A stretch of DNA of 54,292 nt, taken from positions 1 to 54,292 of IMG/VR virus record IMGVR_UViG_3300007517_000008; one strand, written 5' to 3'. Positions 886-44,644 of the stretch are shown one piece after another. The stretch is from a virus (Duplodnaviria > Caudoviricetes). A model generated the notes under the pieces. The model did no database searches and was not told where the DNA came from. It saw only the letters and a list, made by a program, of their open reading frames with translations. Made by a program: the position numbers and the translations under genes. Every line of letters starts with the position of its first letter. The stretch's first letter is position 1.

Positions 886-1704
886 ATGCTAAAAGAATAC
901 ATTGAAGAGTTGGTTAATGAAGTTCTTAGAGGGTTCAACCTAAGTAAGTTCAAATCTATTGCAGGTACAAACGAAAGAGAACAATCAAAAAACCCTCGGG
1001 AATATGAAGGGGAGATCCCGGAACTTAACTACGCCCAGAAGATGTTACCCTATTTGGGTCAAGGCACTTCCAGATCGACATTTGCTTTGTCTGGTGGGAA
1101 AGTTCTTAAAATAGCTACAAATGATGCTGGTGTTGGTCAAAACCAAGCAGAGGTTGAAATTTGGTCTAACTCTAAGTCACCTTACATCACACAAGTTTAT
1201 GACAATTCTCCCGACTACAAGTGGATTATTGCAGAAATTGTTAAACCATTGTCAGAAAGTGAAATGATAAGCTATCTTAGTGTTGATGAATCGGTTTTGC
1301 AAGACATTACCTGGTTGACCCCCACAAGTATTGAAAGTGTAACAAGCAGATACCAGAACAAAATTGATGAAAAGCAGGCAATGATTGATGGTTATCAATC
1401 GAAAATAGACCGAGGGGAAGGGCTAGAACATTTAGAAGCAATGAAGAGAACGATGCAGTCTGGTTATCAAGTTCAGGCCAAGAGCCAGGAAATTTTAGAT
1501 AATCAAACGTTATTGTCCTTTTTGGGAGGAATGATTGATCTTGTCAATAATCATGGTCTTTTGTGGGGAGATATCCACATTGAGCACTTTGGAAGAAATG
1601 CTCAAGGGCAGATTAAATTACTCGACTATGGATATAATGATGAGGTGCGTATAAAATATTATACTTCCGCTCCTTCTTCTCCTACTCCCTCATATTCAAC
1701 CTAA
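886..1704 (+). CDS. Protein kinase-like protein, tandem copy 1
   Basis: Gly-rich loop LGQGTSR, beta3 Lys in VLKIA, alphaC Glu in QNQAE, catalytic loop WGDIHIEHFG, Mg-binding LLDYG. Confidence 0.85.
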   Translation: MLKEYIEELVNEVLRGFNLSKFKSIAGTNEREQSKNPREYEGEIPELNYAQKMLPYLGQGTSRSTFALSGGKVLKIATNDAGVGQNQAEVEIWSNSKSPYITQVYDNSPDYKWIIAEIVKPLSESEMISYLSVDESVLQDITWLTPTSIESVTSRYQNKIDEKQAMIDGYQSKIDRGEGLEHLEAMKRTMQSGYQVQAKSQEILDNQTLLSFLGGMIDLVNNHGLLWGDIHIEHFGRNAQGQIKLLDYGYNDEVRIKYYTSAPSSPTPSYST

Positions 1705-1713
1705 TATAATTTT

Positions 1714-2520
1714 ATGCTAAAAGAATATATTGAAGAGTTGGTTAATGAAGTTCTTGGAGGGTTTAATCTTTCAAAATTCAAAGCTATTGCAGCTACAAAT
1801 GAAAGAGAGGAAGGAACTGTTGGATATGACGGAGAGGCCCCAAGTGAAAGTCAAGCCACCGAAGCACCAGAAGTTCAGTATGCCAAGAAGTTGTTACCCT
1901 ACATGGGTAAAGGCTCTTCCAGAATTACCTTCGCCCTGTCGAGCAGCAAAGTGCTGAAGATTGCTTTAAACCAAGCTGGAGAATATCAAAACCAAGCTGA
2001 AGTTGATATTTGGTCTAACTCCAGGTCTCCTTATCTTACACAGGTTTATGACTTCTCGCCTGATAATCGATGGTTAATAGCAGAAATAGTTAAAGTTATA
2101 GAACCTCAAGATTTATATAACATTTTGAATATTTCACCAAGAAATTTTGGTGAAGCCCTTTTTGCGCGACCAAATTCTATTGAAGAATTTAGAAATAACT
2201 ACGAACACAGAAATGAGTTTCTGCTAAAAGATAATGCTTCGGTAGAAGCAGAAATTAGAACAACGCAAGAAAATGGTGGAAACCCTAGTAAGTTCTTGTT
2301 ACGTAAAAGACAAAAAAATAAAGAAACCATAGCATCCAGACAATCGGTTTTGGACAGCAAAGCATTTATGGGTTTCTTTGAGAATATAATTAACCTTACT
2401 ACAACGTATGGGATATTGTGGCAAGATATTCGTGTTGACCATTTTGGTAGGAACGTTCAGGGGCAAATTAAATTACTCGATTTTGGACTTGATTTAAAAA
2501 CAAGCAGAGAATTCTACTAA
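1714..2520 (+). CDS. Protein kinase-like protein, tandem copy 2
   Basis: MGKGSSR, VLKIA, QNQAE, WQDIRVDHFG, LLDFG. Confidence 0.85.
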   Translation: MLKEYIEELVNEVLGGFNLSKFKAIAATNEREEGTVGYDGEAPSESQATEAPEVQYAKKLLPYMGKGSSRITFALSSSKVLKIALNQAGEYQNQAEVDIWSNSRSPYLTQVYDFSPDNRWLIAEIVKVIEPQDLYNILNISPRNFGEALFARPNSIEEFRNNYEHRNEFLLKDNASVEAEIRTTQENGGNPSKFLLRKRQKNKETIASRQSVLDSKAFMGFFENIINLTTTYGILWQDIRVDHFGRNVQGQIKLLDFGLDLKTSREFY

Positions 2521-2531
2521 AGTGAAAATTT

Positions 2532-3356
2532 ATGTTAAAAGAATATATTGAAGAGTTAGTTAAAGAATCTCTAAGAGGATTTAGTATTTCCAAATTTAAG
2601 GCAATCTCGGACAATGCCGAAAGAAAGCCTGAAGATCCTGGTTATGGAGAGGATGACATACCAGGATACGACAATGTTTTAATGGCTCCAGAGATTGACT
2701 ATGCTGAGAGATACCTTCCTATGCTTGGCGAGGGATCTTCCAGAATTGTCTTCGCCCTGTCAAGCGGCAAAGTCTTGAAGATCGCCCTTAACAAAGCTGG
2801 AGAGGGTCAAAATGGCGAAGAGGCAGAGGTTTGGTTTAAGTCTAGGTCACCTTACATCACGCAGGTTTATGACTTTTCCAAAAATAACAAGTGGATTATT
2901 TCAGAGATCGTTAAGCCGATAACTGAAGAGGATGTTGAGAGAATTCTTGAGATAGACAAATTTGTATTTTTAATGTTTCTTGCACAGCAACCAGCAAAAC
3001 TTGAAGATATTCACTATGTTTTTCAAACAAAGATTAACTACTCAGAAGATGTTATTGAGACAAAAAAAGCAGAGCTAGAGTGGAGCGACAGTGCTGATGA
3101 AAACACTAAGGCAAAACTTCAAAGCGATATTGAATTTGAAGAGGAGCAAGCTAATATTTACAGAAATGCAATTAGTAATAAAGTTTTTACGGAGTTCATG
3201 AGCGTTATTATAAATTTGGTAAACACGTACAGCCTTCAGTGGAACGACATTAACAAAAATCATTTCGGAAGAAATGTTCAAGGGCAGATTAAGTTATTAG
3301 ATTTTGGCTATAGTACCAATGTTGCAAACGATCACTACTCATACGAATTGTCTTAA
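2532..3356 (+). CDS. Protein kinase-like protein, tandem copy 3
   Basis: LGEGSSR, VLKIA, QNGEE, WNDINKNHFG, LLDFG. Confidence 0.85.
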   Translation: MLKEYIEELVKESLRGFSISKFKAISDNAERKPEDPGYGEDDIPGYDNVLMAPEIDYAERYLPMLGEGSSRIVFALSSGKVLKIALNKAGEGQNGEEAEVWFKSRSPYITQVYDFSKNNKWIISEIVKPITEEDVERILEIDKFVFLMFLAQQPAKLEDIHYVFQTKINYSEDVIETKKAELEWSDSADENTKAKLQSDIEFEEEQANIYRNAISNKVFTEFMSVIINLVNTYSLQWNDINKNHFGRNVQGQIKLLDFGYSTNVANDHYSYELS

Positions 3357-3359
3357 TTT

Positions 3360-4169
3360 ATGCTAAAAGAATATATTGAAGAATTGGTTAATGAAGTGCT
3401 TAGAGGATTTAACTTTAATAAGTTTAGAGCTATTTCTGGTACTAATCATAGGGAAGATGATTATCACGTAAAGAAAGAATTGGAAAGACCTGAAAAGTTT
3501 TTGTCTAAATCTAAGGAACAGGAGTACGCAGAACAGTTCTTACCTTTTCTCGGCAAAGGAAGTTCTCGTGTTACATTCGCCTTTTCTGGCGGGAAGGTTC
3601 TTAAAATAGCTACAAACCAAGCAGGTTATGGCCAAAACAAGGCAGAAGTCCAAGTATGGACATTTACGCAGTCCTCAATTGTAACAGAAGTTTATGATCA
3701 TTCGCCTGACTACAAGTGGATTATTTCAGAAATTGTTAAGCCTTTTCCTATTTTTGATTTTTTTAATAGTTTGGGAATAAACTATCATCAGTGGCAATTT
3801 ATGGCGGGTTTATATAAATTAAGAAGTTTTGAAGATTTTAAAACGCAAATTAATGAAAAAATATTGTATTATAATGAATCTATTGTTTATTTGAATAAAC
3901 AACTTGAAGATCCAAGAAAATTGTTTCCGTATGAAATTGCGAGAAATAAAGAAACAATAGAAGAACATCAAGTAGAAATTGAAGACCTACAGAATATATT
4001 TAGTAATGAAAAATTTCTTTCCTTCATGGAAAATTTAATAAATTTAGTAAATGGTCAAAAGCTTGAGTGGGGTGATATTGTGCCTAAACATTTTGGTAGG
4101 ACTGTTAAAGGCGAAATTAAACTTTTGGATTATGGCTACAATGATGAAGTGTCGGACAAATTCTACTAA
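3360..4169 (+). CDS. Protein kinase-like protein, tandem copy 4
   Basis: LGKGSSR, VLKIA, QNKAE, WGDIVPKHFG, LLDYG. Confidence 0.85.
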   Translation: MLKEYIEELVNEVLRGFNFNKFRAISGTNHREDDYHVKKELERPEKFLSKSKEQEYAEQFLPFLGKGSSRVTFAFSGGKVLKIATNQAGYGQNKAEVQVWTFTQSSIVTEVYDHSPDYKWIISEIVKPFPIFDFFNSLGINYHQWQFMAGLYKLRSFEDFKTQINEKILYYNESIVYLNKQLEDPRKLFPYEIARNKETIEEHQVEIEDLQNIFSNEKFLSFMENLINLVNGQKLEWGDIVPKHFGRTVKGEIKLLDYGYNDEVSDKFY

Positions 4170-5614: not shown

Positions 5615-8600
5615 ATGACCGAGCAGATTTTTAAAGCACCAGGATTTTTTGATAGAGAAATTGACCTTACAAACGAGGTACAACGTCCAACTGGAATTCC
5701 TGCTGGTGTAATCGGCACTGCCGAAAGAGGACCAGCCTTCGTCCCACTCACGGTTGGATCTTTTCCTGACTTTACCACAAAGTTCGGTTCACTCAACTCC
5801 AAGATGCCAGGTTTATATGCAGCTAACTTGTTTCTCAAAAACAGGTTCTCCCTTACGTACATTCGTACACTTGGAGCAGGCGCAAACGAAACAACAGCAG
5901 AAATTGAAACTACAAGAGCAAGAGGGACTGTAACAAATGCAGGTTTTGCAATTACGTCATCTCCCGTTGGACATGCTGGGGATGGTCGTACTAACGCAAC
6001 AGTTCAATTTTTAACAGCTCGACACGAAGTTTCTTCGGGAGAGATTTTGGGAATGCCTTTGTTCTCGGATAACGATTCATATTTTACAACAGGGTCGATG
6101 TTGGATGTCAATCTTGTCCGTGGAATGTTGTTTTCTGCATCTGGCTCCAGAGTTATGATTCTTAACCCATCAGAAAATTGGACAAACGTAGCAGACGACT
6201 TTGCAACTACAGATTCTAGCAAAAAGATTAAAATTGTTATTTCTTCCAGCGCAGGTGCTTCCTTTGCATCTACGGATGGCATTGCAGGAATTAAAATCTT
6301 GTCAGCTTCTTTTGACCCTTCGTCATCAGATTACTATGCAAAGGTTCTTAACACCGATCCAAATAAATTCAACGAAGAGAAACACCTTCTTTATCTCAAC
6401 TTTGCAGTGGACAATGAACTTGCAACTCTTTCGACAGGTTCTAACGCAATCTGTATCGCAAGCGGAAGTTCAAACGTTTCCCTTAATTCTGGCGATGTAA
6501 ATCTACCATTCAGAAATGCTTTTGGTAAATTTGACACAAGATACACAACTCCAACAACTCCTTCTTTCATCTCGCAGCCATTCGGTAATACAGAATATGA
6601 TCTTTTCCGAATTGAAACGCTTGACGATGGCGCATATTCAAATAAACGTATTAAGATTTCAATTGCAAACATTAAGGCTTCTACAGATCCAAAGAATCTT
6701 TATGGAACCTTCGCTGTACTTGTAAGAAACTTTGGAGACGACGACGTTAGCCCAGAAATTCTTGAACAGTTCAACAACTGTACATTGAACCCAGACTCCG
6801 ACAACTACGTTGCAAGAGCAATTGGAAATATTAAGGTTTACTTTAACTTTGACGTGGAAAATGAAGACGATCGTCGTCTTGTGCGTTCTGGTCGATATGC
6901 TTCCAGGTCACAGTACATTCGCGTCATTATGTCTCCAAGCGTAGAAAACAAGACGTTAAACCCAAATTGCCTTCCCTTCGGATTTAGAGGCGTTAAGACT
7001 TTAGGAACAAACACACTTCTTACGGATGCAGTAGGAACGGTTGGCGCTCAACGACTTACGGCTTCAGGTTCGGTCTCAGTCACAGAGGCAAGACTTATGC
7101 ACGCTCTTGTTCCACCACTTCCATTCAGATTTAAGGTTACAAGAGGAGAAATTTCTACAACTCCAAGCTTTGTTGGTTCTCCAGGTGCTACAGAAATTGC
7201 AGATTCTCGTTACTATTGGGGTGTTAAGGTTTCCAGAAATAACAACAACATTCTTAACACAAACATCAATGGCGAAATCAACGACGGTGTTCGCGCCTAC
7301 ACGGCATTTGCTGGAATTGAAAAGCTTGATACCTTGGTAACAGGTAGTTCAGCAGACGTATTCAACAACAACAAATTTACTCTTGCAAAAGTAGCTTTGT
7401 CTTCAACAACGATTTCTGGACTTACTGCTTCCGTTGACGCACACATGAAAGAGGCTTCGTACCTCCGCAACGGAAACACGAGTCCTTCCGACTATAGAAT
7501 TAACGATACATACTTGAATAGAGTAACGTTTGCAACGCTTTTGCAAACTGCTACACCAACAACCTTTAACAGATTTTCTGAATATGCCAAGTTTACCACA
7601 GTTGTTTATGGTGGATTTGACGGATTCAACATTCTTGACAAAGAACAAGTGGGAATGACCGACAAGGCAACTTCTGCTGAAACTGGTGGTGGTGCAAACG
7701 CTGCTTACATTTCACCAGGCTTTGGTAACAACCAATCGGGAACTTCTAAAAAGAATAACGCAGTTGCTTCCTTCAGAGTTGCAGCTAAATTGATGACAAA
7801 CCCCTTTGTCTCAAATGTTAACATCGTAACAACGCCAGGTCAACGAGAACCCCTTGTAACCGATTTCGTTGCTGATGTAGTTAAGACATACGGTATGGCT
7901 CAATATCTTATGGATATTCCATATTATGACTCGAACTCAGTTCGTATTTTCGATGGTGAAACAAAGTTTGTGTCAGTTAACAGAACAGCAGACGTTTTTG
8001 AAACTCGCGCTCTCGACACAGAATTTATCTCTCCTTACTTCCCAAATATCGTAGTTGAGGATTCCACAAACAACAACCGAAGAGTTACGCTTCCAGGTTC
8101 GGTAGCAGCTTTGTCTGCAATAGGATTTAATGATAAAGTTGCATACCCTTGGTTCGCTCCTGCTGGCTTCAATCGTGCTTCCCTTGACTTCGTTAAGATG
8201 ACACAAGTGAAGGTCTCACAGCCAGAGCGTGAGCGTCTTTACACTGTAAGAATTAACCCTATCATCAAGTTACCAAACGAAGGTTTCGTAATCTATTCGC
8301 AGCAAACGCTTGAGCAGGCTGGTTCGGCACTACAGTCGCTTAACGTACAGAGAATGATTATTTCGCTTAAGCAACAGATTCAGGCTGCTGGAAATCAGAT
8401 CATTTTCGAACAACTTACTCCAGACCTTCGTTCGCGTTTCGTGAACTTGGTAAAACCAATTTTGGCAACAGTTCAAATACGAGATGGTATTGAAAGATTC
8501 GAAGTTATTTCAGATGAAAGAAATAACACGGAACAAGACATGCTAGCAAATCGTATGCGCGTTAATATCAAGGTTGTTCCAGTAAGAGCAGCAGAATTTA

Positions 8601-8650
8601 TCGCAATTGACTTCATTATATCATCAAGCGGAATCACTTTCGTTAATTGA
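5615..8650 (+). CDS. Contractile tail sheath protein 1
   Basis: N-terminal 'PGFFDREID...GVIGTAERGPAFVP...FTTKFG'. C-terminal 'PWFAPAGFNR...RINPI...LNVQRM...FEQ...DERNNT...PVRAAEFIAIDF'. Confidence 0.93.
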   Translation: MTEQIFKAPGFFDREIDLTNEVQRPTGIPAGVIGTAERGPAFVPLTVGSFPDFTTKFGSLNSKMPGLYAANLFLKNRFSLTYIRTLGAGANETTAEIETTRARGTVTNAGFAITSSPVGHAGDGRTNATVQFLTARHEVSSGEILGMPLFSDNDSYFTTGSMLDVNLVRGMLFSASGSRVMILNPSENWTNVADDFATTDSSKKIKIVISSSAGASFASTDGIAGIKILSASFDPSSSDYYAKVLNTDPNKFNEEKHLLYLNFAVDNELATLSTGSNAICIASGSSNVSLNSGDVNLPFRNAFGKFDTRYTTPTTPSFISQPFGNTEYDLFRIETLDDGAYSNKRIKISIANIKASTDPKNLYGTFAVLVRNFGDDDVSPEILEQFNNCTLNPDSDNYVARAIGNIKVYFNFDVENEDDRRLVRSGRYASRSQYIRVIMSPSVENKTLNPNCLPFGFRGVKTLGTNTLLTDAVGTVGAQRLTASGSVSVTEARLMHALVPPLPFRFKVTRGEISTTPSFVGSPGATEIADSRYYWGVKVSRNNNNILNTNINGEINDGVRAYTAFAGIEKLDTLVTGSSADVFNNNKFTLAKVALSSTTISGLTASVDAHMKEASYLRNGNTSPSDYRINDTYLNRVTFATLLQTATPTTFNRFSEYAKFTTVVYGGFDGFNILDKEQVGMTDKATSAETGGGANAAYISPGFGNNQSGTSKKNNAVASFRVAAKLMTNPFVSNVNIVTTPGQREPLVTDFVADVVKTYGMAQYLMDIPYYDSNSVRIFDGETKFVSVNRTADVFETRALDTEFISPYFPNIVVEDSTNNNRRVTLPGSVAALSAIGFNDKVAYPWFAPAGFNRASLDFVKMTQVKVSQPERERLYTVRINPIIKLPNEGFVIYSQQTLEQAGSALQSLNVQRMIISLKQQIQAAGNQIIFEQLTPDLRSRFVNLVKPILATVQIRDGIERFEVISDERNNTEQDMLANRMRVNIKVVPVRAAEFIAIDFIISSSGITFVN

Positions 8651-8725: not shown

Positions 8726-11716
8726 ATGGCTTCAAATTCTAAATCAGCAGGCGTAACTGCCAGAACTTTTAACCAAACGGGTCCAACTGCCTTGTCTCCA
8801 ATTGGCATTCCCGCTGGCGTTATTGGCACTTCAGAAAAGGGACCAGCCTTTGTGCCTGTTACGGTGCCAACGACTCAAGACTTCATCGTAAATTTTGGAA
8901 GAACCGGAGAGGGTGCCATTGATGGACCTTTGGCTGTTTCTGAGTGGTTAACATCACAACAAAGTGCAACTTTCATAAGAGTTCTTGGCATTGGCGATGG
9001 TAATCAAAGAGTTACTGCTGGAAACAATAAGGGTAGAGCAGCAAATGCAGGCTTCATTGTTGGAGAGAGACAACCACAAACGCTTCTTTCAGGCGCTCTT
9101 GGCCCAAACGTTTTTGCTGTTGCTCAATCAGGCGCAGACTTAGGTCCAGTAGGAAGAACTTATTTACTTGGTACATACATGAGTCAGTCGGCAGGTTCTA
9201 CTATCTTTACTGAAGCTGGACTTTCTGCACAAGGCGTACCTGTCCTTCGAGGAATGGTCATGGCTGCTTCTGGAGTTGTAGTTACGCTGTCGTCTTCCAT
9301 AAATGGAAACAACATAGTTCCAAGCAGAACGCTTGCAGCAGTTACAGCGAACATCAGAGGTGCAATGACTGGTGCTGTTGACCTATCTTTTGGTAAACAA
9401 GAGTTCGTTATGTTCTTAAATGGACACAGAGCGCTTGACTTGGAATATCCAAACTTTATTACTGCTAGTTTCGACCCAACGGCAGCAAACTACTTTGGAA
9501 GCGTCTTGAACAAAGATCCGTTGATGTCAGAAAAAGCCGGATATACACTTTACAGCCACTTCGACATTCATCCAGCACTTGCCGTTCCAAGCGGTTCCGG
9601 TGCATTATCAAGTGGTTTTGGAGCACTAGAAAGAATTGCATTCTTAGTCACAGGTTCGGCAACAAGAAATTCCGGTTCTACAACTTCCCCAAACTTTGAA
9701 AACTTTGAAGATAGATTCAAGCCTTCACAATCTCCTTGGGTTATTTCGCAATTGTTCGGCGGAAAGCCAGAGAATTTATTTAAAGTTTGGACAATTTCTG
9801 ATGGCGCAGGCGAAAAGGTCAAGATTTCGATCGAAAACATTTCTCCAAGTTCTTCGGAACAAAATCTTTATGGAACATTCGATCTTCTTGTAAGAGATTT
9901 GTCTGATTCGGACCGTAACAGAATGGTTCTTGAACAACACCGAGGTCTATCGCTTGACTCTGATGCTCCTAATTATATTGGAAGAGCAATTGGAAACTAT
10001 CGTCCATTTTATAACTTTGAAGCTCGCAGCGGAGAACAAAAGCTTGAAATCGAAGGCGAGTACACAAACAACTCAAGATACATCAGAGTTGAAATTGCAG
10101 ATGCACTCAAGGATAAAAATGTTGATGCAACGGCACTTCCTTTTGGATTTAGAGGAAACCAACACTTGATGACTTCTGGTTCTGCACCAATTGGTGCATA
10201 TACAGACACAGCCATTCTTGCTTCTCCAAACCCTTTCAACAGACTTGTACAGCCACCACTGCCAATGAGACAGAACTTGTCAAGAGGAGCAGTTGGTAAT
10301 ACTTCAGGAGACAGAGCACTTTTCTGGGGAGTTCAATTCGAGAAGGTTATTTCCGTATCCGAAACAAATGCGTCAACAGCTCTCAACCCGAGCCTTCTAA
10401 GTTACATGAAATATTTTCCAGCCTTCCACACGGAGTGGCAGAATGTTGTAGTTAGAGATAATCCAGATGTCTCTGATACTGTGGCAAACGGTATTATTGA
10501 TGCTGACAGATTTAACAACAACTTGTTCTCTTTGGGCAAGATTAGAGTTCCATTTTTGGCAGCTTCTAACACACCTGACATGAATTCACTTGAAAACTGG
10601 GTTTATGTTCGTGCTGGAAACATTGTTACGGGGACTCCTGTCGGTACACGTGCCTTGACCGTAGAGGACTTGAAAGATCCAACCGTACGTCAAGTTGCAA
10701 AATTCTCCTTCTTTGTTGAAGGCGGATTCGATGGTGTGCGCGTGTTCGACAAGGACACAGCACAAATTTCAAATAAGGCTGTGGTTGAAGAGTTGTTGAA
10801 CTCAAACCGTCTTTTGTCTTCTGGGCCTTCGGTTAAGTCGTATGAGCGCGCTCTTTCTGTAATTTCCGATGTCACGGAAGTAGACATTCAGTTGTTGGTA
10901 ATGCCTGGTATTCGTCACAGATACCTCACAGATCAAGCTACTGCTGTTGCCGAGACAAGATTCGACGCTCTTTACATCATGGACATTGAAGAAAGAGATA
11001 CAGCAAACACAACAATTTCTTCGGAAGATCAAATTGTTTCAGTTAGAAACACGGTCAACAACTTCAGAGCACGTGGAATTAACTCTTCCTTCGCAGCAAC
11101 ATTCTTCCAAAATCAGATTATCAGAGACAATATCGCAAATGTTGTTCGTGAAGTTCCTCCCTCTGTTGCTGTACTTGGTGCCTTCGCGAAGAATGACGCC
11201 ATTGCTCACCCTTGGTTCGCTCCAGCAGGCTTTGCAAGAGGCTCGCTTGACAATGTGCAGGAGTCGGCAGTCAAGCTCTCCAGAGAGAACATGGATGACC
11301 TTTATGCAGTTGGAATTAACCCAATCATCGGATTTCCAGGTTCGGATGGAACGGTTGTTTGGGGTCAGAAGACACTATTGGCAACACCAAGTTCGCTTGA
11401 AAGAATTAACGTTCGTCGCCTTCTATTGACGCTTCGTCGTCAAATTAGAAAAGTTGCAAACAGATTCTTGTTTGAACCAAACAGAGCAACAACCCTTGCT
11501 AGATTCTCTCAATTGTGTAACCCAATTCTTAAGAGAATTCAAGATCAAAAGGGTGTTTCGCAATACCTTGTCAAGATTGACACAACAACCACAACTGAGG
11601 TTGATATCCAAAACAAGACCATTCGCGGAAAAATTCTTATTGTTCCAGTGAGAAGCCTTGAGTTCCTTGAACTTAACTTCACGCTAGCAAATAATGGTAA
11701 CTTCAACATCGCCTGA
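8726..11716 (+). CDS. Contractile tail sheath protein 2 (paralog)
   Basis: 'GVIGTSEKGPAFVP', 'PWFAPAGFARG', 'GINPI', 'VWGQKTL', 'RINVRRLL', 'FEPN', 'PVRSLEFLELNF'. Confidence 0.93.
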   Translation: MASNSKSAGVTARTFNQTGPTALSPIGIPAGVIGTSEKGPAFVPVTVPTTQDFIVNFGRTGEGAIDGPLAVSEWLTSQQSATFIRVLGIGDGNQRVTAGNNKGRAANAGFIVGERQPQTLLSGALGPNVFAVAQSGADLGPVGRTYLLGTYMSQSAGSTIFTEAGLSAQGVPVLRGMVMAASGVVVTLSSSINGNNIVPSRTLAAVTANIRGAMTGAVDLSFGKQEFVMFLNGHRALDLEYPNFITASFDPTAANYFGSVLNKDPLMSEKAGYTLYSHFDIHPALAVPSGSGALSSGFGALERIAFLVTGSATRNSGSTTSPNFENFEDRFKPSQSPWVISQLFGGKPENLFKVWTISDGAGEKVKISIENISPSSSEQNLYGTFDLLVRDLSDSDRNRMVLEQHRGLSLDSDAPNYIGRAIGNYRPFYNFEARSGEQKLEIEGEYTNNSRYIRVEIADALKDKNVDATALPFGFRGNQHLMTSGSAPIGAYTDTAILASPNPFNRLVQPPLPMRQNLSRGAVGNTSGDRALFWGVQFEKVISVSETNASTALNPSLLSYMKYFPAFHTEWQNVVVRDNPDVSDTVANGIIDADRFNNNLFSLGKIRVPFLAASNTPDMNSLENWVYVRAGNIVTGTPVGTRALTVEDLKDPTVRQVAKFSFFVEGGFDGVRVFDKDTAQISNKAVVEELLNSNRLLSSGPSVKSYERALSVISDVTEVDIQLLVMPGIRHRYLTDQATAVAETRFDALYIMDIEERDTANTTISSEDQIVSVRNTVNNFRARGINSSFAATFFQNQIIRDNIANVVREVPPSVAVLGAFAKNDAIAHPWFAPAGFARGSLDNVQESAVKLSRENMDDLYAVGINPIIGFPGSDGTVVWGQKTLLATPSSLERINVRRLLLTLRRQIRKVANRFLFEPNRATTLARFSQLCNPILKRIQDQKGVSQYLVKIDTTTTTEVDIQNKTIRGKILIVPVRSLEFLELNFTLANNGNFNIA

Positions 11717-11743: not shown

Positions 11744-12823
11744 ATGAATAAACTTGATGTAAAAAAAATAATCAAAGAAGAGGTCAAAAAGTCTCTGCTT
11801 GAAAACAGAGAAGCTAAGAAGGTTATTTTAGAAAGCCGCCTTCTTATTATTAATGAAATGATTTCTCTTTCGGAAGCGGATTTCATTAACCGAGCAAAAC
11901 AATGGCTTAAGTCAAAGGCTTTCGGTGCCGAACAAGGCGTAAGAGACACGGTTAAAAATAGCGTAATGGTTAATCCGGAAAAGATTGTTTCCGATCCTAA
12001 TTCTGTACAGAAAATTCTTGACACAGCAATCAAAAATGCACAGTCACAAATTACCAAATTTAGGTCACAAACGCTACAAACATCAACAAGCATCAACAAT
12101 CTTCAAGACAATATTTTTGACCTTTTTGGAAAGTTTTTCAATCTTCTTGATTCAATTCCACAAGAAAAACGTGGACAGTATGAAAGAGAAGTCATGAAAG
12201 TTGTTTCTGTATTTTACAATCTCTTGATGGAAGAAAAGAAGAGAATTGAAGTTTACATTTCTGCTCTTGCGAGAGAAGCATCAACTCAGGGTTATAACAT
12301 GGGTTCTTCGTCTCCTGAAATGTCCTCATATTCAGGTGCCAAAATTTCCCCAACTACCCAAGCTACTCAAGGAAAAGCAGCCGTTGGCGGATCTGCTTTA
12401 ATCCCACAAGGAGTGCGTGAATCTTTGGATGTAAAAAAAAAAGTAATTGTGCCAAGACCTCAAATGTCTATGTCGTCAAATGAAGAGGAAGCTTCGTCGC
12501 CTGTAGATTTAAGTGACCTAGAAAGGCCACTTGAATCACTTATGCACAAAAACAAAATACCTTGGTTTTCCATGGGCACAAGGTCATCAGGCGATCAACA
12601 AATACTTATTATTAAAATGTCATTGGATAATAAGTCAAATTGGCTTGACGGTATTCTGCACAATTCTCGATGGGCTCAAGCAAGCATTGAGTTGCATAAA
12701 GGTGTTTATACAGTAGAGCAAAGATATGGAACAATAAAGCCAATATTACGTTCTGCTAAAGTATTAACTCCAGAGGCAGCTTTTGGAAAGTTTGAGAAAT
12801 GGCTTTCACAGGTTCAAGTTTAA
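11744..12823 (+). CDS. Hypothetical protein with acidic N-terminal leader, possible internal head protein
   Basis: 359 aa with RBS AGGA. Starts MNKLDVKKIIKEEVKKSLLE and has an internal A10 run at 12433-12442. Confidence 0.75.
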   Translation: MNKLDVKKIIKEEVKKSLLENREAKKVILESRLLIINEMISLSEADFINRAKQWLKSKAFGAEQGVRDTVKNSVMVNPEKIVSDPNSVQKILDTAIKNAQSQITKFRSQTLQTSTSINNLQDNIFDLFGKFFNLLDSIPQEKRGQYEREVMKVVSVFYNLLMEEKKRIEVYISALAREASTQGYNMGSSSPEMSSYSGAKISPTTQATQGKAAVGGSALIPQGVRESLDVKKKVIVPRPQMSMSSNEEEASSPVDLSDLERPLESLMHKNKIPWFSMGTRSSGDQQILIIKMSLDNKSNWLDGILHNSRWAQASIELHKGVYTVEQRYGTIKPILRSAKVLTPEAAFGKFEKWLSQVQV

Positions 12824-13123
12824 GGTATAAAAGGATTATAAAATGACTACGAAAAAAATTGGAATTGATGAATTGAGAGCGATTATCAAAGAAGCAATCG
12901 CTGACCACAAAGAGAAAAAAGAGTCTGCTTCCGACAAGAGAATCAAGACTACAAAAGACAAAGAAAAATCAAAAGAGAAAAAGTCTGAAAAGCTTTCTGA
13001 GATTCAACTTCGTAATTTGGTAAAAGAATCTATTTCGAAACAGATTTCTGAAATGATGGCTAGTGACACGGCTAAACCAAAAGTAGTTGTGCCAAGACCT
13101 CAAATGTCTATGTCATCAGATGA
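12441..13123 (+). repeat. Dispersed direct repeat, 12441-12483 and 13081-13123
   Basis: 40/43 nt identical with a perfect 28-nt core TTGTGCCAAGACCTCAAATGTCTATGTC. Encodes KV(I/V)VPRPQMSMSS in two adjacent genes. Confidence 0.9.
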
Positions 13124-13577
13124 CGAAGTTTCCTCACCTTCTTCTTCGATGCCAAAGGAAGGCGATAAAGTTCAACTAGCTTCTGGAAAAGAAGCTTATG
13201 TCGCCAAAGTTTCTGGAGACATGGTTTTCGTGACCATTGACGGAATCAAGATGGTCGCAGTTCCAATGGACTATGTGAATGTTATTGCTGATGACCCATC
13301 TAGTGAATTCAATGCCGTTAAGGCGCCAGATGAGTCCGAAGACGAACGCGCAGGTACTTTGGATAAATACCTTGATAGACCTTTCCTTAACAAAGACACA
13401 AGAAACTCGCTTGAAAAGGAAAGAGGCGAAATTCAAAGTCGCAGAACTGCTGGACCTATGGCTGCTGCCGCTGCCAGAGAAGAAGAAGAGGCTGCAAGAT
13501 CTGGTCGTATTGCCAAAGTTAAAGTTGACGGACTTACAGAATCCAAGAAGAAGTTGGCAGCTAAGAGAAGAAAATAA
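12843..13577 (+). CDS. Hypothetical charged protein with two leader motifs and an SH3/KOW-like segment
   Basis: Leaders ELRAIIKEAI and QLRNLVKESI. 'KEGDKVQL...AYVAKVSGDMVFV' looks like a small beta-barrel. Confidence 0.75.
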   Translation: MTTKKIGIDELRAIIKEAIADHKEKKESASDKRIKTTKDKEKSKEKKSEKLSEIQLRNLVKESISKQISEMMASDTAKPKVVVPRPQMSMSSDDEVSSPSSSMPKEGDKVQLASGKEAYVAKVSGDMVFVTIDGIKMVAVPMDYVNVIADDPSSEFNAVKAPDESEDERAGTLDKYLDRPFLNKDTRNSLEKERGEIQSRRTAGPMAAAAAREEEEAARSGRIAKVKVDGLTESKKKLAAKRRK

Positions 13578-13670
13578 TTTTTTCTCACACGAACCATACA
13601 AAATATGGAAAAACTGCTGGCGGGTTTATTTGGAAAGCAATACTTACTAACTTAGGAGAATAATATTATC

Positions 13671-14159
13671 ATGGCTACAACTTTAGATGTTACTGAGATG
13701 CTACCAACAAAGTTTCAAACTATTGGAAAGCGTCACTTCCTTTTGGCAATCGAAGGAATAGATTCCTTCCTTGTAAAAACCGGAGCCCGCCCAAGCATTT
13801 CTACTGAAGAAGTGGCAATCAACTGGATTAACTCCACGAGATATATTGCTGGCAAAACAACTTTTGGCACAATGGAGGTAACCCTTCATGACGCTATCGC
13901 ACCTTCTGGGGCACAACAGGTTATGGAATGGATTCGACTTTGCTTTGAGTCGGTGACCGGACGTTCGGGTTACGCAGACTTCTACAAAAGAGATATCCAG
14001 ATTAAAATGCTTGATCCAGTAGGAACGGTCATTCAGTTGTGGGACATCAAGGGAGCTTTTGTCACAGAAGCTAACTTTAATGAAGTCACATACGAAGGGT
14101 CAGATCAAACGGAAATTTCTTTGACGATTCGATACGACAACGCTGTACTTGTCTACTGA
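13671..14159 (+). CDS. Tail tube protein (T4 gp19-like)
   Basis: 162 aa, 'YIAGKTTFGTMEVTLHD...VMEW...YKRDIQIKMLDPVG...WDIKGAF...ISLTIRYD'. RBS AGGAG. Confidence 0.92.
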   Translation: MATTLDVTEMLPTKFQTIGKRHFLLAIEGIDSFLVKTGARPSISTEEVAINWINSTRYIAGKTTFGTMEVTLHDAIAPSGAQQVMEWIRLCFESVTGRSGYADFYKRDIQIKMLDPVGTVIQLWDIKGAFVTEANFNEVTYEGSDQTEISLTIRYDNAVLVY

Positions 14160-14798: not shown

Positions 14799-15155
14799 GT
14801 GAATGAAAAATATCTAAAAGAATACATCTTGTCTTTAATCGAAGAACATTTGAAAGAAAATCTTTCTCCGCATGGTTATCTTTCGAAAACAAATCGTCCG
14901 CTAGGTACTCAATCTTGGGATCCACAGAAACAAAAAGATTTTGCTACTCAAAGAGCGATTGACATGTACACTAAAAAAGAACCTGCTGTCAACCCAGATC
15001 CGGAAAAGCAGGCATACATTGATCAGCTACGTAAAAATCGTCAAGAAGAATATGCTGTTCAAGATGAACATAACAAAGATGTAAAGACAAGAGTCGTTCA
15101 ACAACCAGGTCAGGCGCAGAAGCAACAAGTGCAGACAGTTGTTCCGCAAAAATAA
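14799..15155 (+). CDS. Hypothetical protein with acidic N-terminal leader
   Basis: GTG start. MNEKYLKEYILSLIEEHLKE shares LKEYI with the kinase leaders. Confidence 0.7.
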   Translation: MNEKYLKEYILSLIEEHLKENLSPHGYLSKTNRPLGTQSWDPQKQKDFATQRAIDMYTKKEPAVNPDPEKQAYIDQLRKNRQEEYAVQDEHNKDVKTRVVQQPGQAQKQQVQTVVPQK

Positions 15156-15179: not shown

Positions 15180-15509
15180 GTGAATATTACAAAAGAAGCT
15201 CTACAAAAACTTATAACAGAATGCGTTGACCAAAAGATTAATGAAATGGCAGACGACATGCCGCTTGACCTTCGCTCTGTTGGCGTTCGTTGGGACAATA
15301 TGAAATATCTTGCTGGCAAAGGGAAACTTACAGGCAAGTGGGCTGTTATTATGAAGGCTTATATTGACTGTGGAGAAGACGAAGATAGAACTCTGGCAAT
15401 TCTAAAGGCTGCGGCAGCTACACTGGAAGCTAATAAAACCAGGAAGCCACAAAAGCCACCGGAGACTATGGCGTCACAAGCAGAACTCACAGACTTTTCA
15501 AAGTTTTAA
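15180..15509 (+). CDS. Hypothetical protein with acidic N-terminal leader
   Basis: GTG start, MNITKEALQKLITECVDQKINE. Confidence 0.7.
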   Translation: MNITKEALQKLITECVDQKINEMADDMPLDLRSVGVRWDNMKYLAGKGKLTGKWAVIMKAYIDCGEDEDRTLAILKAAAATLEANKTRKPQKPPETMASQAELTDFSKF

Positions 15510-17730: not shown

Positions 17731-20700
17731 GTGGCTATAGACAATCTAAAAATTGCCGAATCGATAAAAAAACTCCAAGAGAGCATTCTTGGCATTCTTG
17801 AATCGCAGGCAAGGTCACAGAAAAATCAGCTAGAAATATCTAAACAGCTTGCAGAAAGTATTGCAAGTGTCGCGACTAATTCTGGAAATGCTACAGATAA
17901 TTTACAAAAAACTCAAGAAAGTATCGAAAGAGCGGCTGAGGCTGCCGAGAAGCTTGGTGGCTCTAAAACTATGGACATGTTTGCCGGTAGCACCAAAAAA
18001 GCTGGAACGGGCGCTCAGTCGTTAAGAAAAAGTCTTGGTTCTGTTGCCAAAACAATGCCTGCCTTCGGAAAATTTGCAGGCATGTGGGAGGGCTTTGCCT
18101 CTGGCGTAGTTGCTTCTGCTAATGCATTCAGATTATTTGGCAGTATGGCTGGGGATGTTTTAGGCGTTTTAGCCCAAGTGGCAGTTGGTATTATTTCTTT
18201 TCCATTTAAGTTGTTATCTGGAATAATTGACTTTGCCTCAAAAGGTGGAGGAGACTCTGGCTTAAGGCAAGCTCTCGAAGATATTAGAAAAGAATTCGGT
18301 TCTCTCAAAACTACTTCAGGTGGCGCCATCGTAACTATTGCAAGAAGCATGAAAGGGGAACTTGCAAACACAGGTTTATCTGCTTGGAGAGTTTTTGGAA
18401 ACTTAGCTGAGAGACTCAAGGCTGTTGCAGAATATGCAAAAAACTTAGGGCCACTATTTGGAGTATTGTCTGCGCAATTTGTTAAAAATGGAGAAGCTCT
18501 TGGTGCTTACTTTAAGGGTCTAGGTTTGACAGAAACGGGCCAAAAGGCTGTTGCGAGTAGGTCACATGCCCTTGGTCAAGAAGTCACAGAAGTCACTAGA
18601 CAGATGACGAATTTTTCTATACAACTTGGAGCAGAGTTTGGCTTGAGTGCAAAGGAAATTTCTCGTGACATGGGAGACATGATGGGAGACTTTGAAAACT
18701 TTGGAGGAATGGCTCCACAGGTTCTTGCCCAAGTTTCCGTTTATGCTCGTCGTTTGGGTGTTGACATTAAAGGTCTTTTGGGAGTTATTGGTCAATTTGA
18801 TAATTTTGAAACAGCAGCAACTTCGGCAGCACAACTAACGCAGGCTTTTGGTATTCAGGTTGACGCTCTTGAAATGTTGAAGGAGCAAGATCCAGCAGCA
18901 AGAACAGAACGTTTAAGAAAAGCCTTCTTTGCCGCAGGCAGGTCTGTTGAAGGAATGAACCGCCAGGAACGTGCACTCCTTGCTACGCAAACAGGATTGG
19001 AGGCAAGTACGCTTGATTTAGTTTTCTCTTCAAAAAATCAAGGATTGTCCTACGACCAAGTTAAGAAAAAGTCGGATGGCGCTCGAAAGTCACAACTGAC
19101 CCAAGAAGAAGCTATTTCTAAACTTTCAGATGCTATTGAAAGAATGGTAAAGTCTGGTTCCGGTCCAAGCGGAGGATTCTTTGAAAGATTTTTCCAAGGA
19201 TTTGAGAAGGGTATAACAAGGTCTCAAGACTTCCGGCTACTAATGATAAATATCAGGATGGCCTTGCGGCAAACTTATAGAGCTGGTATTGAAGTCGGTA
19301 GAATGTTTGTTAGTATGTTTCCTGGAATTGAGGGAATAACTAAGGGTTTAGCAGGTCTTTTTGATCGAGAGAAATTCAAAAAGATGACTGGTTCACTTAA
19401 GAATATTTTTCAGACTTTCTTCCAAAGCCTTACAGGGAACAACTCCAAGGCATCTTTCCATAATTTTATGGAAAATCTTAAGACTATGTTTTGGAACTAT
19501 TTTGATAGTTCTTCCGCCGAAGGTCGAGGAATCTTGGACGGTATAAAAAGCTTCTCTAAGGCTGCTTCTGTTATTATCGCCGGAATGATTGGAGAAATTG
19601 CCAAGGGACTTACTACAGGTATTTCTTTCATTACCGAGGTACTATCAGGACGTACAAAACTTGGGATAGGTTCAGCAGATGGACCTATGGGATTTATAGG
19701 AGAGCTTTTAGGGCCAATTGTTGATTCTATCAAAGAAGCTTGGCCACCAGTTGTAGCCGCATTAACGAAACTTTTTGAAGAAGAAATATGGCCCAAAGTA
19801 AGAGATTTTCTTTGGGATAACGCAGGCACGATTGGTACATTGCTGTTTGGACCTGGACTTCTTAAGGCTATTTTTGGAGGTTTGACTGGGGGTATAGCGG
19901 GAATTGGAACAACGGCTGCAATAGAAGGCACTAAAGCTATATTTTCTTCGGATGGCGTAAAAGGAGCCATGAAGACTGGAATGGAACGTCTTATTGGTTC
20001 TGCAACAAGTGCTGGAACTGCGGCTGCTACACAAACCGCTGCTGCTACGGCTGGCTTAGGAACGGCGTCTAAGGCTGCTTCTGCGGCTGCTGACGTGTCT
20101 TCAATGATTAAAACAGCCGCAGTTATAACTGTTGGTGTTGGCGCTATAATGTTGGCGATTTTTGTTCTTGCTGAACTCATGAGGGCGAGAGACTTGACGC
20201 CAGAACAAATGTTTACTGCTGCTGGCGTTATGGCTATAGCCGGTTTGGTTGTAATGGAAATTTCTGCTTCAATAGCCATTATGAGCTTAGCAGGTCAAGT
20301 TCTACAAGGCACAATTCTACAAGCTCTTGCGGGTCTTGCTGCTATAGGTCTTGTTGGCGCTGGTATGGTTTATGGAATAGGTTATTTGGTGGAGACGCTA
20401 AAAGACTATCAACCAGCGCAAGTAAATAATGCTCTTAATGCCATGGTTGCTGGTTCTGCATTTATTCTAGCAGCAACGGGCGTTGTTATTGGAGCAATGG
20501 GAATCGGAGCACTTTTGATTGGTACTGGCGGGACAGGAGTTCTTGCCTTGGCTGCTGGTTTGGCTACAGTTGGTCTTGTGATAGAGTTAATGGTAGTAGA
20601 GATTGAAAATATTATTGATCAGGTAGGTTCTTTTAGTATTCCAAGTAATTTTGATAGAAACTTTCAAATATTCACAGACGTAATGGAGTCCGTTGGAACC

Positions 20701-25400: not shown

Positions 25401-25650
25401 ATTCCCTTGGGAAACCGTTGGAATAAACAACCGCGCCCCAAAGATGGTTAAAATTACAATGCAGTTCCTACCAGTACATGACCTTCAGCCTGGTATTGAC
25501 TCGAATGGTTTCAATACAGCGCCTATTTATAATGTCGGTAAAACAAATCGTAAAATTAATTCTGATACTGCTTCTTCTGATGTACTTGATACTGAAGAAA
25601 GAAAATATTTCTCAGATACATTTCTGGATAGGTCAAGGTCAAGTTCATGA
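22480..25650 (+). CDS. Baseplate protein with tail-tube-initiator-like C-terminal domain
   Basis: 'PFYFHDLR...FHAFLENVSDQY...GYGR...YTYKNTNRTIDLSF...PMIRLRLGD...GFIKTF...PWE...PKMVKITMQFLPVHD' resembles tube-initiator (gp48/gp54-like) domains. Confidence 0.65.
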   Translation: MAIEDSDPRNPPRLIPELTTSGEGNTSVIGVDDLVPREKRRLGDYASYITKVVFKNEYPVAPGSTGLTLTTPNGNPAPISDSTNFAEKTYLNTFDGSESGQRARSLFEQTSESGLLDTDTKFEIKKGKSDDEKRTGTEIFREIDVLRGQAEVPRRVEEVLEKNNRFSERKPAYRSGQFEGVENSLGSLIIQPELGQHLPGKFPGKKSGDGSDFTTISFEKLKHFGMMTMLNASGEANIPIPDEDDNNYLEILGRNVSTAIPGIARLGKRVEVTRFDGVKILNQIEPTFKKDIRDATLQGRTILSYGNVNSALAPFMGLVGAASINSAAVLGLTVSAMLRALAATVNFQPGDVQSSVMGPQESASISLDRTLRLGHFERNYRPQNENSGLNIVSTSYPYFDCVERGIELFFIGQINRGDLGSTTNQIQHLHGYYNVIFRNLTRNTSDLILGLIGQFNVGSTDFGKSAYDVDPNFGGTDNVITDLAETALGIIKIVNSSKLLKFMNILAVMGEISYASDTENNTVDGISDDSLLVVGSGDFAGVVTPKISVLHAKSRLTDQFGGKLAWGKSTVKSMYLLPSTLLKGGLDYDAHDNRFAGLGAGVKGFQLGSNRLEAEQVKAMETYLEADYMPFYFHDLRTNEICSFHAFLENVSDQYSVDYSENEGYGRIGKVYTYKNTNRTIDLSFMVVATNEDDFDEMWIGINKLITLLYPQYTSGRAIATGNNSFIQPFSQVIAASPMIRLRLGDIFKSNYNKFNLARIFGIGSPDFRLESEQENSETQANLVREANRVNQIMQANRRSQINGIWAADDFAYLRPNFGGSIRGQQNNYEKVEPIGQPARGLRQANATGRFLHITTPTKIKIVNPNGNIRAGRRGITHPVTFELVNPLNDTQSGLHTCDREALSPDDASLLRAAQEQVRQNSSPTPERTDEISQQAINTFFDENTNPVFKSFESVRGKGLAGFIKTFNMEIDNKFPWETVGINNRAPKMVKITMQFLPVHDLQPGIDSNGFNTAPIYNVGKTNRKINSDTASSDVLDTEERKYFSDTFLDRSRSSS

Positions 25651-31555: not shown

Positions 31556-31585
31556 TTTACGAAACGTTGTGTAATAACGTATAAT
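31556..31585 (+). promoter_or_regulatory. sigma70-like promoter of the recA operon
   Basis: TTTACG-N18-TATAAT. It overlaps the ORF-track ATG at 31584, favouring 31641 as the true start. Confidence 0.55.
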
Positions 31586-31640
31586 GAACTCTGGCGTCAA
31601 ACTTAAAAAGTCATGCGCCCATAACAAAAAGAAACAAAAT

Positions 31641-43833: not shown

Positions 43834-44445
43834 ATGAATCTCTTAGCAAATCTAATCTCAAGACTTATCGTAGAAGAAATAAACTTTGAAGAGTTTAAGC
43901 AATCTATTAACAAAGCTGAGTACGCAAGTAAAAACGGGAAGTACCTTGGACAAGGCTCTTCTCGTTTTGTTTTTGACCTAGAAAACGGGAATGTCCTCAA
44001 AATAGCAGACGGAAATTCTGGGTTAGTGCAAAATAAACAAGAGATAACAATTTGCAATAAATTTTGCAAGTCTGGTTTATTTGCGAAAATATTTGACTTC
44101 GACCCAAACTATGAATGGCTTGTTATGGAAAAAGTCAAAACTTGGTCAGAGGACGAATTTACAAAGATAATTGGTTTTGGAGACCAACAATTAGGAGCTT
44201 TTTTAATTCAGGCAGAAAAAAATGAACCAACCAAGGAAGGTTTTGAAGCAACAATAAAAACCTCGATGAGATGGCATTGGTTCTCGGAAGCTTATAAAAA
44301 AACAACCCCAGAAGGATTGAAGCTTTTAAATGTAGTCTTCACTCTTGCCTCAAAGTATGGAATTAATGATATTGACAGATATGATCATTTTGGAACAACA
44401 AACAGCGGAAAGATAGTGGTACTCGATTATGGCCTCAAACTCTAA
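43834..44445 (+). CDS. Protein kinase-like protein, fifth paralog (short form)
   Basis: YLGQGSSR, VLKIA, QNKQE, WLVMEKV, DIDRYDHFG, VLDYG. Leader LANLISRLIVEE. Confidence 0.85.
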   Translation: MNLLANLISRLIVEEINFEEFKQSINKAEYASKNGKYLGQGSSRFVFDLENGNVLKIADGNSGLVQNKQEITICNKFCKSGLFAKIFDFDPNYEWLVMEKVKTWSEDEFTKIIGFGDQQLGAFLIQAEKNEPTKEGFEATIKTSMRWHWFSEAYKKTTPEGLKLLNVVFTLASKYGINDIDRYDHFGTTNSGKIVVLDYGLKL

Positions 44446-44644
44446 ACATAAATTATATTCACTACTAAAAGAAATCATCGAGGAAGAAATTGCTCTTGAT
44501 GAATTTAATGCCATTGGCTCCGGGGCTGTCTCAGGCGTTGCTAGTGACAAGAAAAGTATTAACCAGACTGGCTCTCCTTTTGATATAGACATGAAGCCAC
44601 AGCAAACCAAGATTTGGTCAGGGGATAAACCTTCTTCAGCCTAA
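44429..44644 (+). CDS. Small protein with acidic leader
   Basis: KLYSLLKEIIEEEIALDEFNAIGSGAVSG. Overlaps the kinase stop. Confidence 0.65.
   Translation: MASNSKHKLYSLLKEIIEEEIALDEFNAIGSGAVSGVASDKKSINQTGSPFDIDMKPQQTKIWSGDKPSSA

Follow-up and report, generated by a model that had tools for sequence, protein, structure and literature searches.

Phages are known to carry kinases of reduced architecture in several settings. The T7 kinase (gp0.7, hereafter T7K; phrog_2828, PF27024) is encoded by one early gene and bears a DNA-binding/shut-off domain at its C-terminus; it disarms many bacterial defences at once by broad phosphorylation (PMC13645617). Kinase domains of Ser/Thr/Tyr type that have no C-terminal lobe (C-lobe) were described by Iyer et al. 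2017 (PMC5512222) in the polyvalent proteins of phages and conjugative elements and, as genes of their own, in Bacteroidetes phages, with the T7 kinase as precedent. The signature of that group comprises a Glu before strand 2, a Gln in the last N-lobe strand and an insertion that separates the conserved His from the Asp, along with fusion to polyvalent-protein domains. Among jumbo phages, Salmonella phage Munch gp046, Klebsiella phage RaK2 ORF356, the K64-1 'protein kinase' and RM378 p120 are assigned to one protein family, phrog_4301. To this family also belong four tandem kinase-like genes, here named K1 to K4, in the viral record IMGVR_UViG_3300007517_000008, all 54,292 bases of which were analysed (the window) and which, with a CheckV completeness of 16%, is a fragment of an uncultured, T4-related jumbo phage. 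We conclude that K1–K4 are probably diversified, minimal protein-kinase-like enzymes. The account that we favour as a whole, tentatively and from sequence analysis, is that an expanded set of such kinases has been retargeted by a variable insert, and that a shared N-terminal leader loads them into the phage head, from which they would be injected.

A second kind of precedent comes from phage T4, whose internal proteins IPI–III and Alt are made late and bear a short N-terminal tag ending in hydrophobic-x-Glu; as laid out in two papers, loading proceeds through tags of 10 residues and the gp21 protease cleaves after (L/I)-x-Glu (PMC9026906, PMC3012670). The bodies behind the shared T4 tag are diverse, and the ADP-ribosyltransferase Alt is a precedent for an injected protein-modifying enzyme. 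K1–K4 have a comparable tag and would likewise be made late, and a gp21-type protease is encoded by a related 320-kb viral genome (G001, 81% complete), whose structural proteins are 61–70% identical to those of the window. However, by its profile the leader of K1–K4 is not similar in sequence to the N-termini of T4 proteins, its helix runs past the Glu and it also occurs inside fusion proteins. Hypothetically, the present case combines two known kinds of system, phage kinases and T4-type cargo loading.

Compared with the described kinases, K1–K4 are closest to the Munch gp046-type members, with which they share the LGxGSSR Gly-loop, the VLKIA lysine, D-x4-H, DYG and a chain that ends soon after DYG. 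The phrog_4301 members of cultured phages are shorter (~195–255 amino acids, aa), and RaK2 and Munch have a single copy each and RM378 two at separate sites, whereas the window has four in tandem in a neck operon; moreover, no N-terminal helix is present in the copies of RaK2 and Munch, while those of the window have both the leader and a long hypervariable insert. With the kinases of PMC5512222, as far as the available text describes them, K1–K4 have in common the loss of the C-terminal subdomain, the retained active site, the phage origin with stand-alone forms, and a proposed role in phosphorylating host proteins during conflict. A tandem array, a hypervariable insert and a leader are not part of that description, by which the comparison was made, and the 26 long members of the present family are tandem kinase fusions without any other Pfam domain, as opposed to polyvalent-protein fusions. 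The preliminary description of the locus had held that no system of this form was known; given the C-lobe-less phage kinases reported in PMC5512222, this was too strong.

T7K and K1–K4 are both minimal phage kinases with D-x4-(N/H)-x12-D geometry, but they belong to different families. The phrog_2828 profile had no match in the window or in G001, and an hhalign comparison of the family with a 20-sequence T7K alignment was not significant (probability 0.7%, E 0.087). We considered whether the family corresponds to the 'distant T7K homologues' of the jumbo phages Munch and G17 mentioned in PMC13645617; this was ruled out by the hhalign result and by the T7K profile matching a different Munch gene. 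Munch (MK268344.1) thus has two distinct kinase-like genes, at 17791–18381 and 326390–327088, namely gp046 (phrog_4301) and the phrog_2828 match, the latter with four stop codons when read through.

A minimal kinase-like family with conserved catalytic residues

All five paralogs of the window, K1–K4 and a shorter fifth copy located elsewhere, match phrog_4301, which is annotated as of 'unknown function' (E 2e-18 to 1.5e-13), and the same profile matches RaK2 ORF356, Munch gp046 and two genes of Rhodothermus phage RM378. A profile comparison with Munch gp046 ('putative protein kinase') gave a probability of 98.9% (E 1.7e-17) over 62 columns of the N-lobe. In an alignment of 62 family members, numbered throughout after K1, the residues G60, R63, K75, G82, Q85, E89, G236, D247 and G249 are invariant, and D229, H234, F17 and F22 are conserved in at least 90% of the sequences. 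They fall into a Gly-loop LGxGSSR (G58, G60, R63), the lysine of VLKIA (K75), E89 and the DYG motif (D247, G249), so that the Gly-loop, β3 lysine and αC glutamate of the protein-kinase-like superfamily are all present and invariant or nearly so. In the catalytic loop, D229 and D247 stand at the canonical spacing, with a histidine in the position of the asparagine (D229-x4-H234-x12-D247), and the alignment to MEK1 is in register, WGD-x4-H-x12-DYG falling onto HRD-x4-N-x12-DFG. The chain ends 12–25 residues past DYG, which implies that the entire C-terminal kinase subdomain is absent; the C-lobe of Pkinase (PF00069), with its activation segment, APE motif and helices F–I, was accordingly not found. 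Bud32/PRPK, RIO and Kdo kinase are likewise minimal atypical kinases without an activation segment and with a reduced C-lobe, although no specific relationship to any of them is supported.

The conservation of the lysine, the glutamate and both aspartates across 62 diverse members argues for catalysis, and we consider it quite probable that K1–K4 are active enzymes that carry out phosphotransfer. That their substrates are proteins is, in our judgement, a reasonable expectation, held with less assurance. The kinase fold of K1–K4 is itself inferred from the motifs and from weak matches, and several observations weigh against it. The catalytic-loop asparagine is replaced and the C-lobe is missing. 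Scans of the paralogs against Pfam and NCBIfam gave no match. In the PDB, a profile search with the four sequences found kinases at E 0.05 at best, the 60 PDB matches listed all being protein kinases and all weak, and a search with the 62 sequences found its best kinase only at E 0.0096, below a top match to a cap-binding protein that aligned to the helical insert only. The 'complete kinase-fold motifs' of the preliminary description therefore hold for the Gly-loop, Lys, Glu, Asp and DYG but not for the asparagine or the C-lobe, and the PDB matches that bear on the fold are in register yet weak. The identity of the proteins as kinase-like enzymes with conserved catalytic residues is supported by the 62-sequence alignment and the PDB register.

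The family is large, with 2483 cluster representatives at a cut-off of E≤1e-3, a number that falls to 1063 at 1e-10 and to 73 at 1e-30, and was met here solely in phage and viral-metagenome sequence; in the ESM Atlas the nearest taxon-labelled clusters are all viral, without names. Among cultured phages, a tblastn search with K1 gave no match at E≤1e-5 and only weak, partial ones at E≤1, and Flavobacterium phage immuto, the closest cultured phage by capsid protein (45% identity), has no family member. Some members match the atypical kinase-like families AceK, ABC1 and YrbL weakly. Many are single polypeptides of two, three or four kinase units; the database proteins P0005, P0009, P0010 and P0039, for instance, have three to four complete tandem units per chain, each with the N-terminal helix and the FNLxxFK motif described below.

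A hypervariable insert between constant flanks

The conservation of the four paralogs is markedly uneven along the chain. Mean pairwise identity is 78% in the N-terminal helix with its FNLxxFK motif (K1 residues 1–27), 30% in an acidic, Pro/Gly-rich linker (28–47), 65% in the N-lobe (48–122) and 54% in the C-terminal catalytic part (212–259), but only 16% in a helical insert of ~85 aa (123–211) that separates the hinge from the catalytic loop (Table 1). The same pattern is seen between phages. P0004, the sister of K4 in another phage (SH-aLRT 96), is 53% identical to it overall, with 78% in the leader, 70% in the linker, 73% in the N-lobe and 60% in the C-terminal part, compared with 19% in the insert. 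In this single close cross-phage pair, the insert is diverged to chance level or replaced, while its flanks have held.

Since the lobe that usually binds the substrate is missing and the insert occupies that very place, we infer that the insert forms the substrate-selecting surface. The suggestion, made when the locus was first described, that the paralogs may cover different targets fits a hypervariable segment of this kind.

An array expanded at a conserved site

The first description of four tandem paralogs of ~270 aa with a common start was borne out. K1–K4 are 268–274 aa long, K2–K4 are 42–48% identical to K1 in protein sequence, their relationship as paralogs greatly exceeds what chance would give (profile E 1e-135 to 1e-138), and MLKEYIEELV forms residues 1–10 in all four copies. 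The genes are closely packed, with intergenic gaps of 9, 11 and 3 nucleotides (nt), 8 nt before K1 and 30 nt after K4. The array had been placed between genes corresponding to T4 genes 14 and 15. The position agrees with this, whereas the labels lack firm sequence support: the gp14-like protein had no Pfam, PHROG or PDB match, the Pfam match of the gp15-like protein lies below the cut-off (Table 1), and PDB profile searches with both proteins were empty. We retain 'gp14-like' and 'gp15-like' as reasonable by position.

At the DNA level, K1–K4 are 63–88% identical over conserved blocks and 93% over the first 30 nt. The former values indicate that the copies are old, neither recent duplicates nor homogenised. 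Recent gene conversion as the source of the identical leader was ruled out on the same grounds and because codon identity there is only moderately raised, to 66% at invariant residues of the leader compared with 44–45% elsewhere. The raised value may reflect an additional constraint on the 5′ end of the mRNA.

Relatives are encoded at nine viral-contig loci and one metagenome locus. In three of them (L007, which lies in G001, L010 and L040), two copies each stand between the same two neck genes. L012, which is more distant, has the two neck genes directly adjacent and its one copy 3.8 kb upstream. The gp14-like protein is 70, 53 and 42% identical to its syntenic counterpart in L007, L010 and L012, and the gp15-like protein 61, 49, 55 and 36% in L007, L010, L040 and L012. 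As three relatives have two copies at the conserved site, the array in the window has grown from two to four; it is a lineage-specific expansion, and tandem duplication is frequent in the family as a whole. The copy-number comparison proposed in the preliminary description thus yields a number that varies, with 1, 2 or 4 copies, and is not constant.

The phylogeny places K1–K4 in one clade with P0004, P0006 and P0007, nested in a larger clade that also holds the first copy of L007 (SH-aLRT 96), while the second copies of L007 and L010 branch outside that larger clade. A contig of 31,073 bases is on record both for P0007 and for one member of the P0006 cluster, perhaps one and the same contig. 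A third copy in G001, at another site, groups with the fifth paralog of the window and with L014 (SH-aLRT 93, with long branches). This fifth paralog, found with a profile built from K1–K4, sits in the replication and nucleotide-metabolism module, between the genes for a 5′-3′ deoxyribonucleotidase and thymidylate synthase.

Gene order in G001 allows the site to be viewed in a wider frame. It runs from portal, gp21-type protease, two small open reading frames (ORFs), a 792-aa ORF and a gp23-type major capsid protein to an adaptor-like protein of 422 aa, the gp14-like gene, two kinases, the gp15-like gene and two sheath genes. The G001 capsid protein shares 45% identity with its immuto counterpart and 34% with gp23 of T4-like cyanophages.

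A lineage-specific leader helix

Along the chain, the helical hydrophobic moment peaks at residues 2–17, which are predicted to form an amphipathic helix, with hydrophobic positions 2, 6, 9, 10, 13 and 14 family-wide. Glu12 is found in 49 of the 62 family members, always with V, L or I at position 10, giving [V/L/I]-x-Glu. The resemblance to a short N-terminal tag of the T4 capsid-targeting sequence (CTS) type, which ends in (L/I)-x-Glu, is at the level of this motif. G001 encodes a Peptidase_S77 (T4 gp21) protease (126900–127538; 93 bits); none was found in the window, which holds 16% of its genome by the CheckV estimate. In the G001 capsid protein, L-R-E lies a few residues before STGG, which by eye, as a positional reading, is near the L-T-E that precedes the mature N-terminus of T4 gp23.

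The distribution of the helix was followed with a profile of the helix alone, without the start methionine, run on the N-termini of the 581 non-overlapping ORFs of the window and G001. Fifteen non-kinase N-termini scored at least 8 bits, compared with 0 and 1 for two internal-segment controls, 2 for the reversed, 0 for the shuffled and 1 for the C-terminal control. Likewise, the pattern h-x2-h-h-x-E (h, hydrophobic) occurs within residues 2–19 of 26 of the 581 ORFs, compared with 2–8 at each of five internal offsets. In T4, this pattern occurs at 4 of 256 N-termini (6, 4 and 0 at internal offsets). The enrichment in the window and G001 and its absence from T4 indicate that the helix class is specific to this lineage.

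Non-kinase bearers of the helix are of several kinds. Four tail-module ORFs of the window, starting at 11744, 12843, 14799 and 15180, have a helix that ends in h-h-x-Glu with the Glu at residue 12–17, and none of them matched any protein family; their leader-profile scores are 9.6 (11744), 9.7 (14799) and 6.1 (15180) bits. A 71-aa ORF has a kinase-like leader without a kinase domain and overlaps the end of the fifth paralog; as its G001 counterpart (73587–74237) has 216 aa, it may be truncated. In G001, the helix is further present in one ORF adjoining the protease gene, in two ORFs between the capsid and neck genes, and in four small paralog-like ORFs of 97–227 aa (12336–14042, locus L024), which have the Glu exactly at residue 14 of the N-terminal helix and no family match. 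Finally, the deoxyribonucleotidase and tRNA nucleotidyltransferase of G001 (74868–75542 and 75539–76735, locus L027) have N-terminal helix extensions of the same class, whereas the window deoxyribonucleotidase (43200–43811) is without the helix, from which it follows that the helix can be gained or lost as a module.

Proposed virion loading and the alternatives

Under the account that we favour, the constant core (Gly-loop, Lys75, Glu89, Asp229, His234 and Asp247) would bind ATP and catalyse, the ~85-aa insert would replace the lost C-terminal subdomain as substrate selector, and the array would supply several kinases with different protein targets. The kinases would be made alongside the neck proteins, i.e. 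late. The 12-residue leader ending in V-x-Glu would serve, by a slight preference on our part, as a propeptide of the head-protease type and as an address into the assembling head, and the packaged kinases would enter the next cell together with the DNA.

As regards timing, there is no room within the array for promoters of its own, suggesting co-transcription with the neck genes and hence late expression. The T4-type late promoter motif, however, was not enriched (2 found versus 1.66 expected), and a scan for sigma-70-type promoters and terminators remained at chance level. In favour of the loading account, the leaderless members in RaK2 and Munch are surrounded by small genes, each with a spacer of its own, a layout that we judged to be of early type. 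The RaK2 virion proteins, detected or predicted, all map to two structural clusters (PMC3622015), and ORF356 lies outside both of these clusters.

Our slight preference for loading comes from four features of the helix class: unrelated proteins share it, it is modular, it has a protease-type end, and the phage group in which it occurs has a T4-type protease. Nevertheless, virion loading of the leader-bearing members is a tentative proposal that may well prove wrong, since a number of findings run counter to it. In fused proteins of two to four units, the helix, the Glu and FNLxxFK are retained in the internal units as well, which means that the helix belongs to the domain or else that the fusions are polyproteins. 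F17 and F22, situated just past the putative cut, are present in 59 of the 62 members, and the N-terminal region may simply be part of the kinase domain. The fifth paralog carries the helix outside the structural genes. A combined profile of helix plus FNLxxFK has kinases as its sole matches at strong scores, and the leader profile scored 1 of 256 T4 N-termini, so that T4's own N-termini are not picked out. Several helix bearers, moreover, are tail-module ORFs or metabolic enzymes, which gives no pointer to the head in particular, and none of the 26 long members is fused to a head-morphogenesis, MuF, other polyvalent-protein or effector domain as judged by Pfam. The T4-like cleavable tag of the preliminary description consequently stands in part: the conserved [V/L/I]-x-Glu and the protease of G001 agree with it, the helices inside fusions and the conserved F17 and F22 do not. 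In the literature searched, we found no virion-borne phage kinase and no experimental work on any phrog_4301 member.

Several of these findings are equally the basis of a serious competing possibility, though we think it more doubtful than probable, namely that the same enzymes remain unpackaged and act late in the cytoplasm, with helix and FNLxxFK docking in cis as an integral element of each kinase unit. Possible roles would be to disarm defences triggered by late structural proteins, or to phosphorylate phage or host proteins before lysis. The retention of helix and FNLxxFK in the internal units of fusions of two to four domains, the near-invariance of F17, F22 and K23, the helix of the replication-module paralog and the lack of a head-targeting fusion among the long members are all consistent with this, as is the T7 kinase, which counters defences inside the cell (PMC13645617). 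Left unexplained, however, are the enrichment of a helix of the same class on unrelated N-termini of the lineage, its presence on just one of the deoxyribonucleotidase orthologs, and the conservation of [V/L/I]-x-Glu among phages of a group that has a gp21-type protease; furthermore, a host-takeover enzyme made only late would have little time to act.

It is improbable, in our estimate, that K1–K4 are not protein kinases but small-molecule kinases (for nucleotides, sugars or lipids) or altered kinase-fold binders with a target-binding insert. The substitution of His for the catalytic-loop Asn, the missing substrate-binding lobe and the absence of a significant match to a curated kinase model would agree with such a role, and so would the location of the fifth paralog among nucleotide-metabolism genes and the weak matches to AceK, ABC1 and YrbL, but the Lys, the Glu and both Asp are conserved in the 62 members, and an insert that is hypervariable between close relatives is a better fit to macromolecular targets. 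A role as structural neck or collar components with an incidental kinase-like fold would suit the location amid neck genes, which four related phages have in common, but is very improbable given the variable copy number (1, 2 or 4), the adjacent neck genes of L012 with none between, the members outside structural modules, including the RaK2 and Munch regions judged early by layout, and the conserved catalytic residues.

The loading account can be extended to a lineage-wide delivery of enzymes, which we regard as unlikely in this full form. An address helix with a head-protease site would then load not only a kinome, each copy retargeted by its insert, but also, in relatives, a CCA-adding enzyme and a deoxyribonucleotidase, host or defence proteins would be phosphorylated before phage transcription, and the fused kinases would be polyproteins cut at each helix.

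Other features of the window

The coordinates of the array and of the features related to it are collected in Table 1. Downstream of the gp15-like gene follow two tail-sheath paralogs, the tail tube and the baseplate hub and then the replication and nucleotide-metabolism genes. The tandem sheath genes, at 5615–8650 (1011 aa) and 8726–11716 (996 aa), are both conserved in G001 and are ~31% identical to each other, as judged from how each matches the sheath gene of one relative; it is unusual for a myovirus to carry two sheath genes. After the baseplate hub come three long ORFs of 1512, 1056 and 1028 aa (17731–22269, 22480–25650 and 25938–29024) without a PHROG or Pfam match. A RecA/UvsX-like recombinase of 596 aa (31584–33374) was matched in two stretches, and its residues 295–353 gave a weak intein-splicing match below the cut-off (E 1.7e-4), so this ORF may hold an intein or other insertion. 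The ORF for the small subunit of ribonucleotide reductase (36530–38545), which at 671 aa is about twice the usual length, was likewise matched in two stretches and overlaps the large-subunit ORF where the latter begins, at 38502.

Table 1. Positions of the kinase-like array, its sequence elements and the associated features in the window.
Feature	Position	Strand	Remarks
gp14-like neck gene, 227 aa	194..877	+	Upstream flank of the array; label by position
K1, kinase-like paralog, 272 aa	886..1704	+	ORF; phrog_4301 E 2e-18; motifs
12-codon leader of K1, MLKEYIEELVNE	886..921	+	Copies at 1714–1749, 2532–2567 and 3360–3395
Hypervariable helical insert of K1 (residues ~123–211)	1252..1518	+	Estimated boundaries
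Approximate insert equivalents in K2, K3 and K4	2104–2334, 2928–3173, 3744–3986	+	Estimated boundaries
K2, kinase-like paralog, 268 aa	1714..2520	+	ORF; phrog_4301 E 2e-14; 48% identity to K1
K3, kinase-like paralog, 274 aa	2532..3356	+	ORF; phrog_4301 E 1.8e-14; 42% identity to K1
K4, kinase-like paralog, 269 aa	3360..4169	+	ORF; phrog_4301 E 1.5e-13
gp15-like gene, 418 aa	4200..5456	+	Downstream flank; Pfam T4-gp15_tss E 0.055, below cut-off
Tail-module ORFs with the same helix class	11744–12823, 12843–13577, 14799–15155, 15180–15509	+	Pattern match (regular expression)
Fifth, shorter paralog, 203 aa	43834..44445	+	Profile E 7.7e-24; phrog_4301 E 1.6e-16
71-aa ORF with kinase-like leader, without kinase domain	44429..44644	+	Leader profile 10.1 bits

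Implications

The maintenance in one phage of four diverged kinases whose insert changes fast and probably selects the target would point to targeted rather than broad phosphorylation, and the constant flanks around the variable insert offer a natural scaffold on which substrate choice by minimal kinases can be studied. Should K1–K4 prove to be virion-borne, they would be the first injected kinases, acting before transcription, a stage at which counter-defence is poorly understood. Given the size of the family, with its more than two thousand representatives, one biochemical and one virion-proteomic result would annotate thousands of phage genes.

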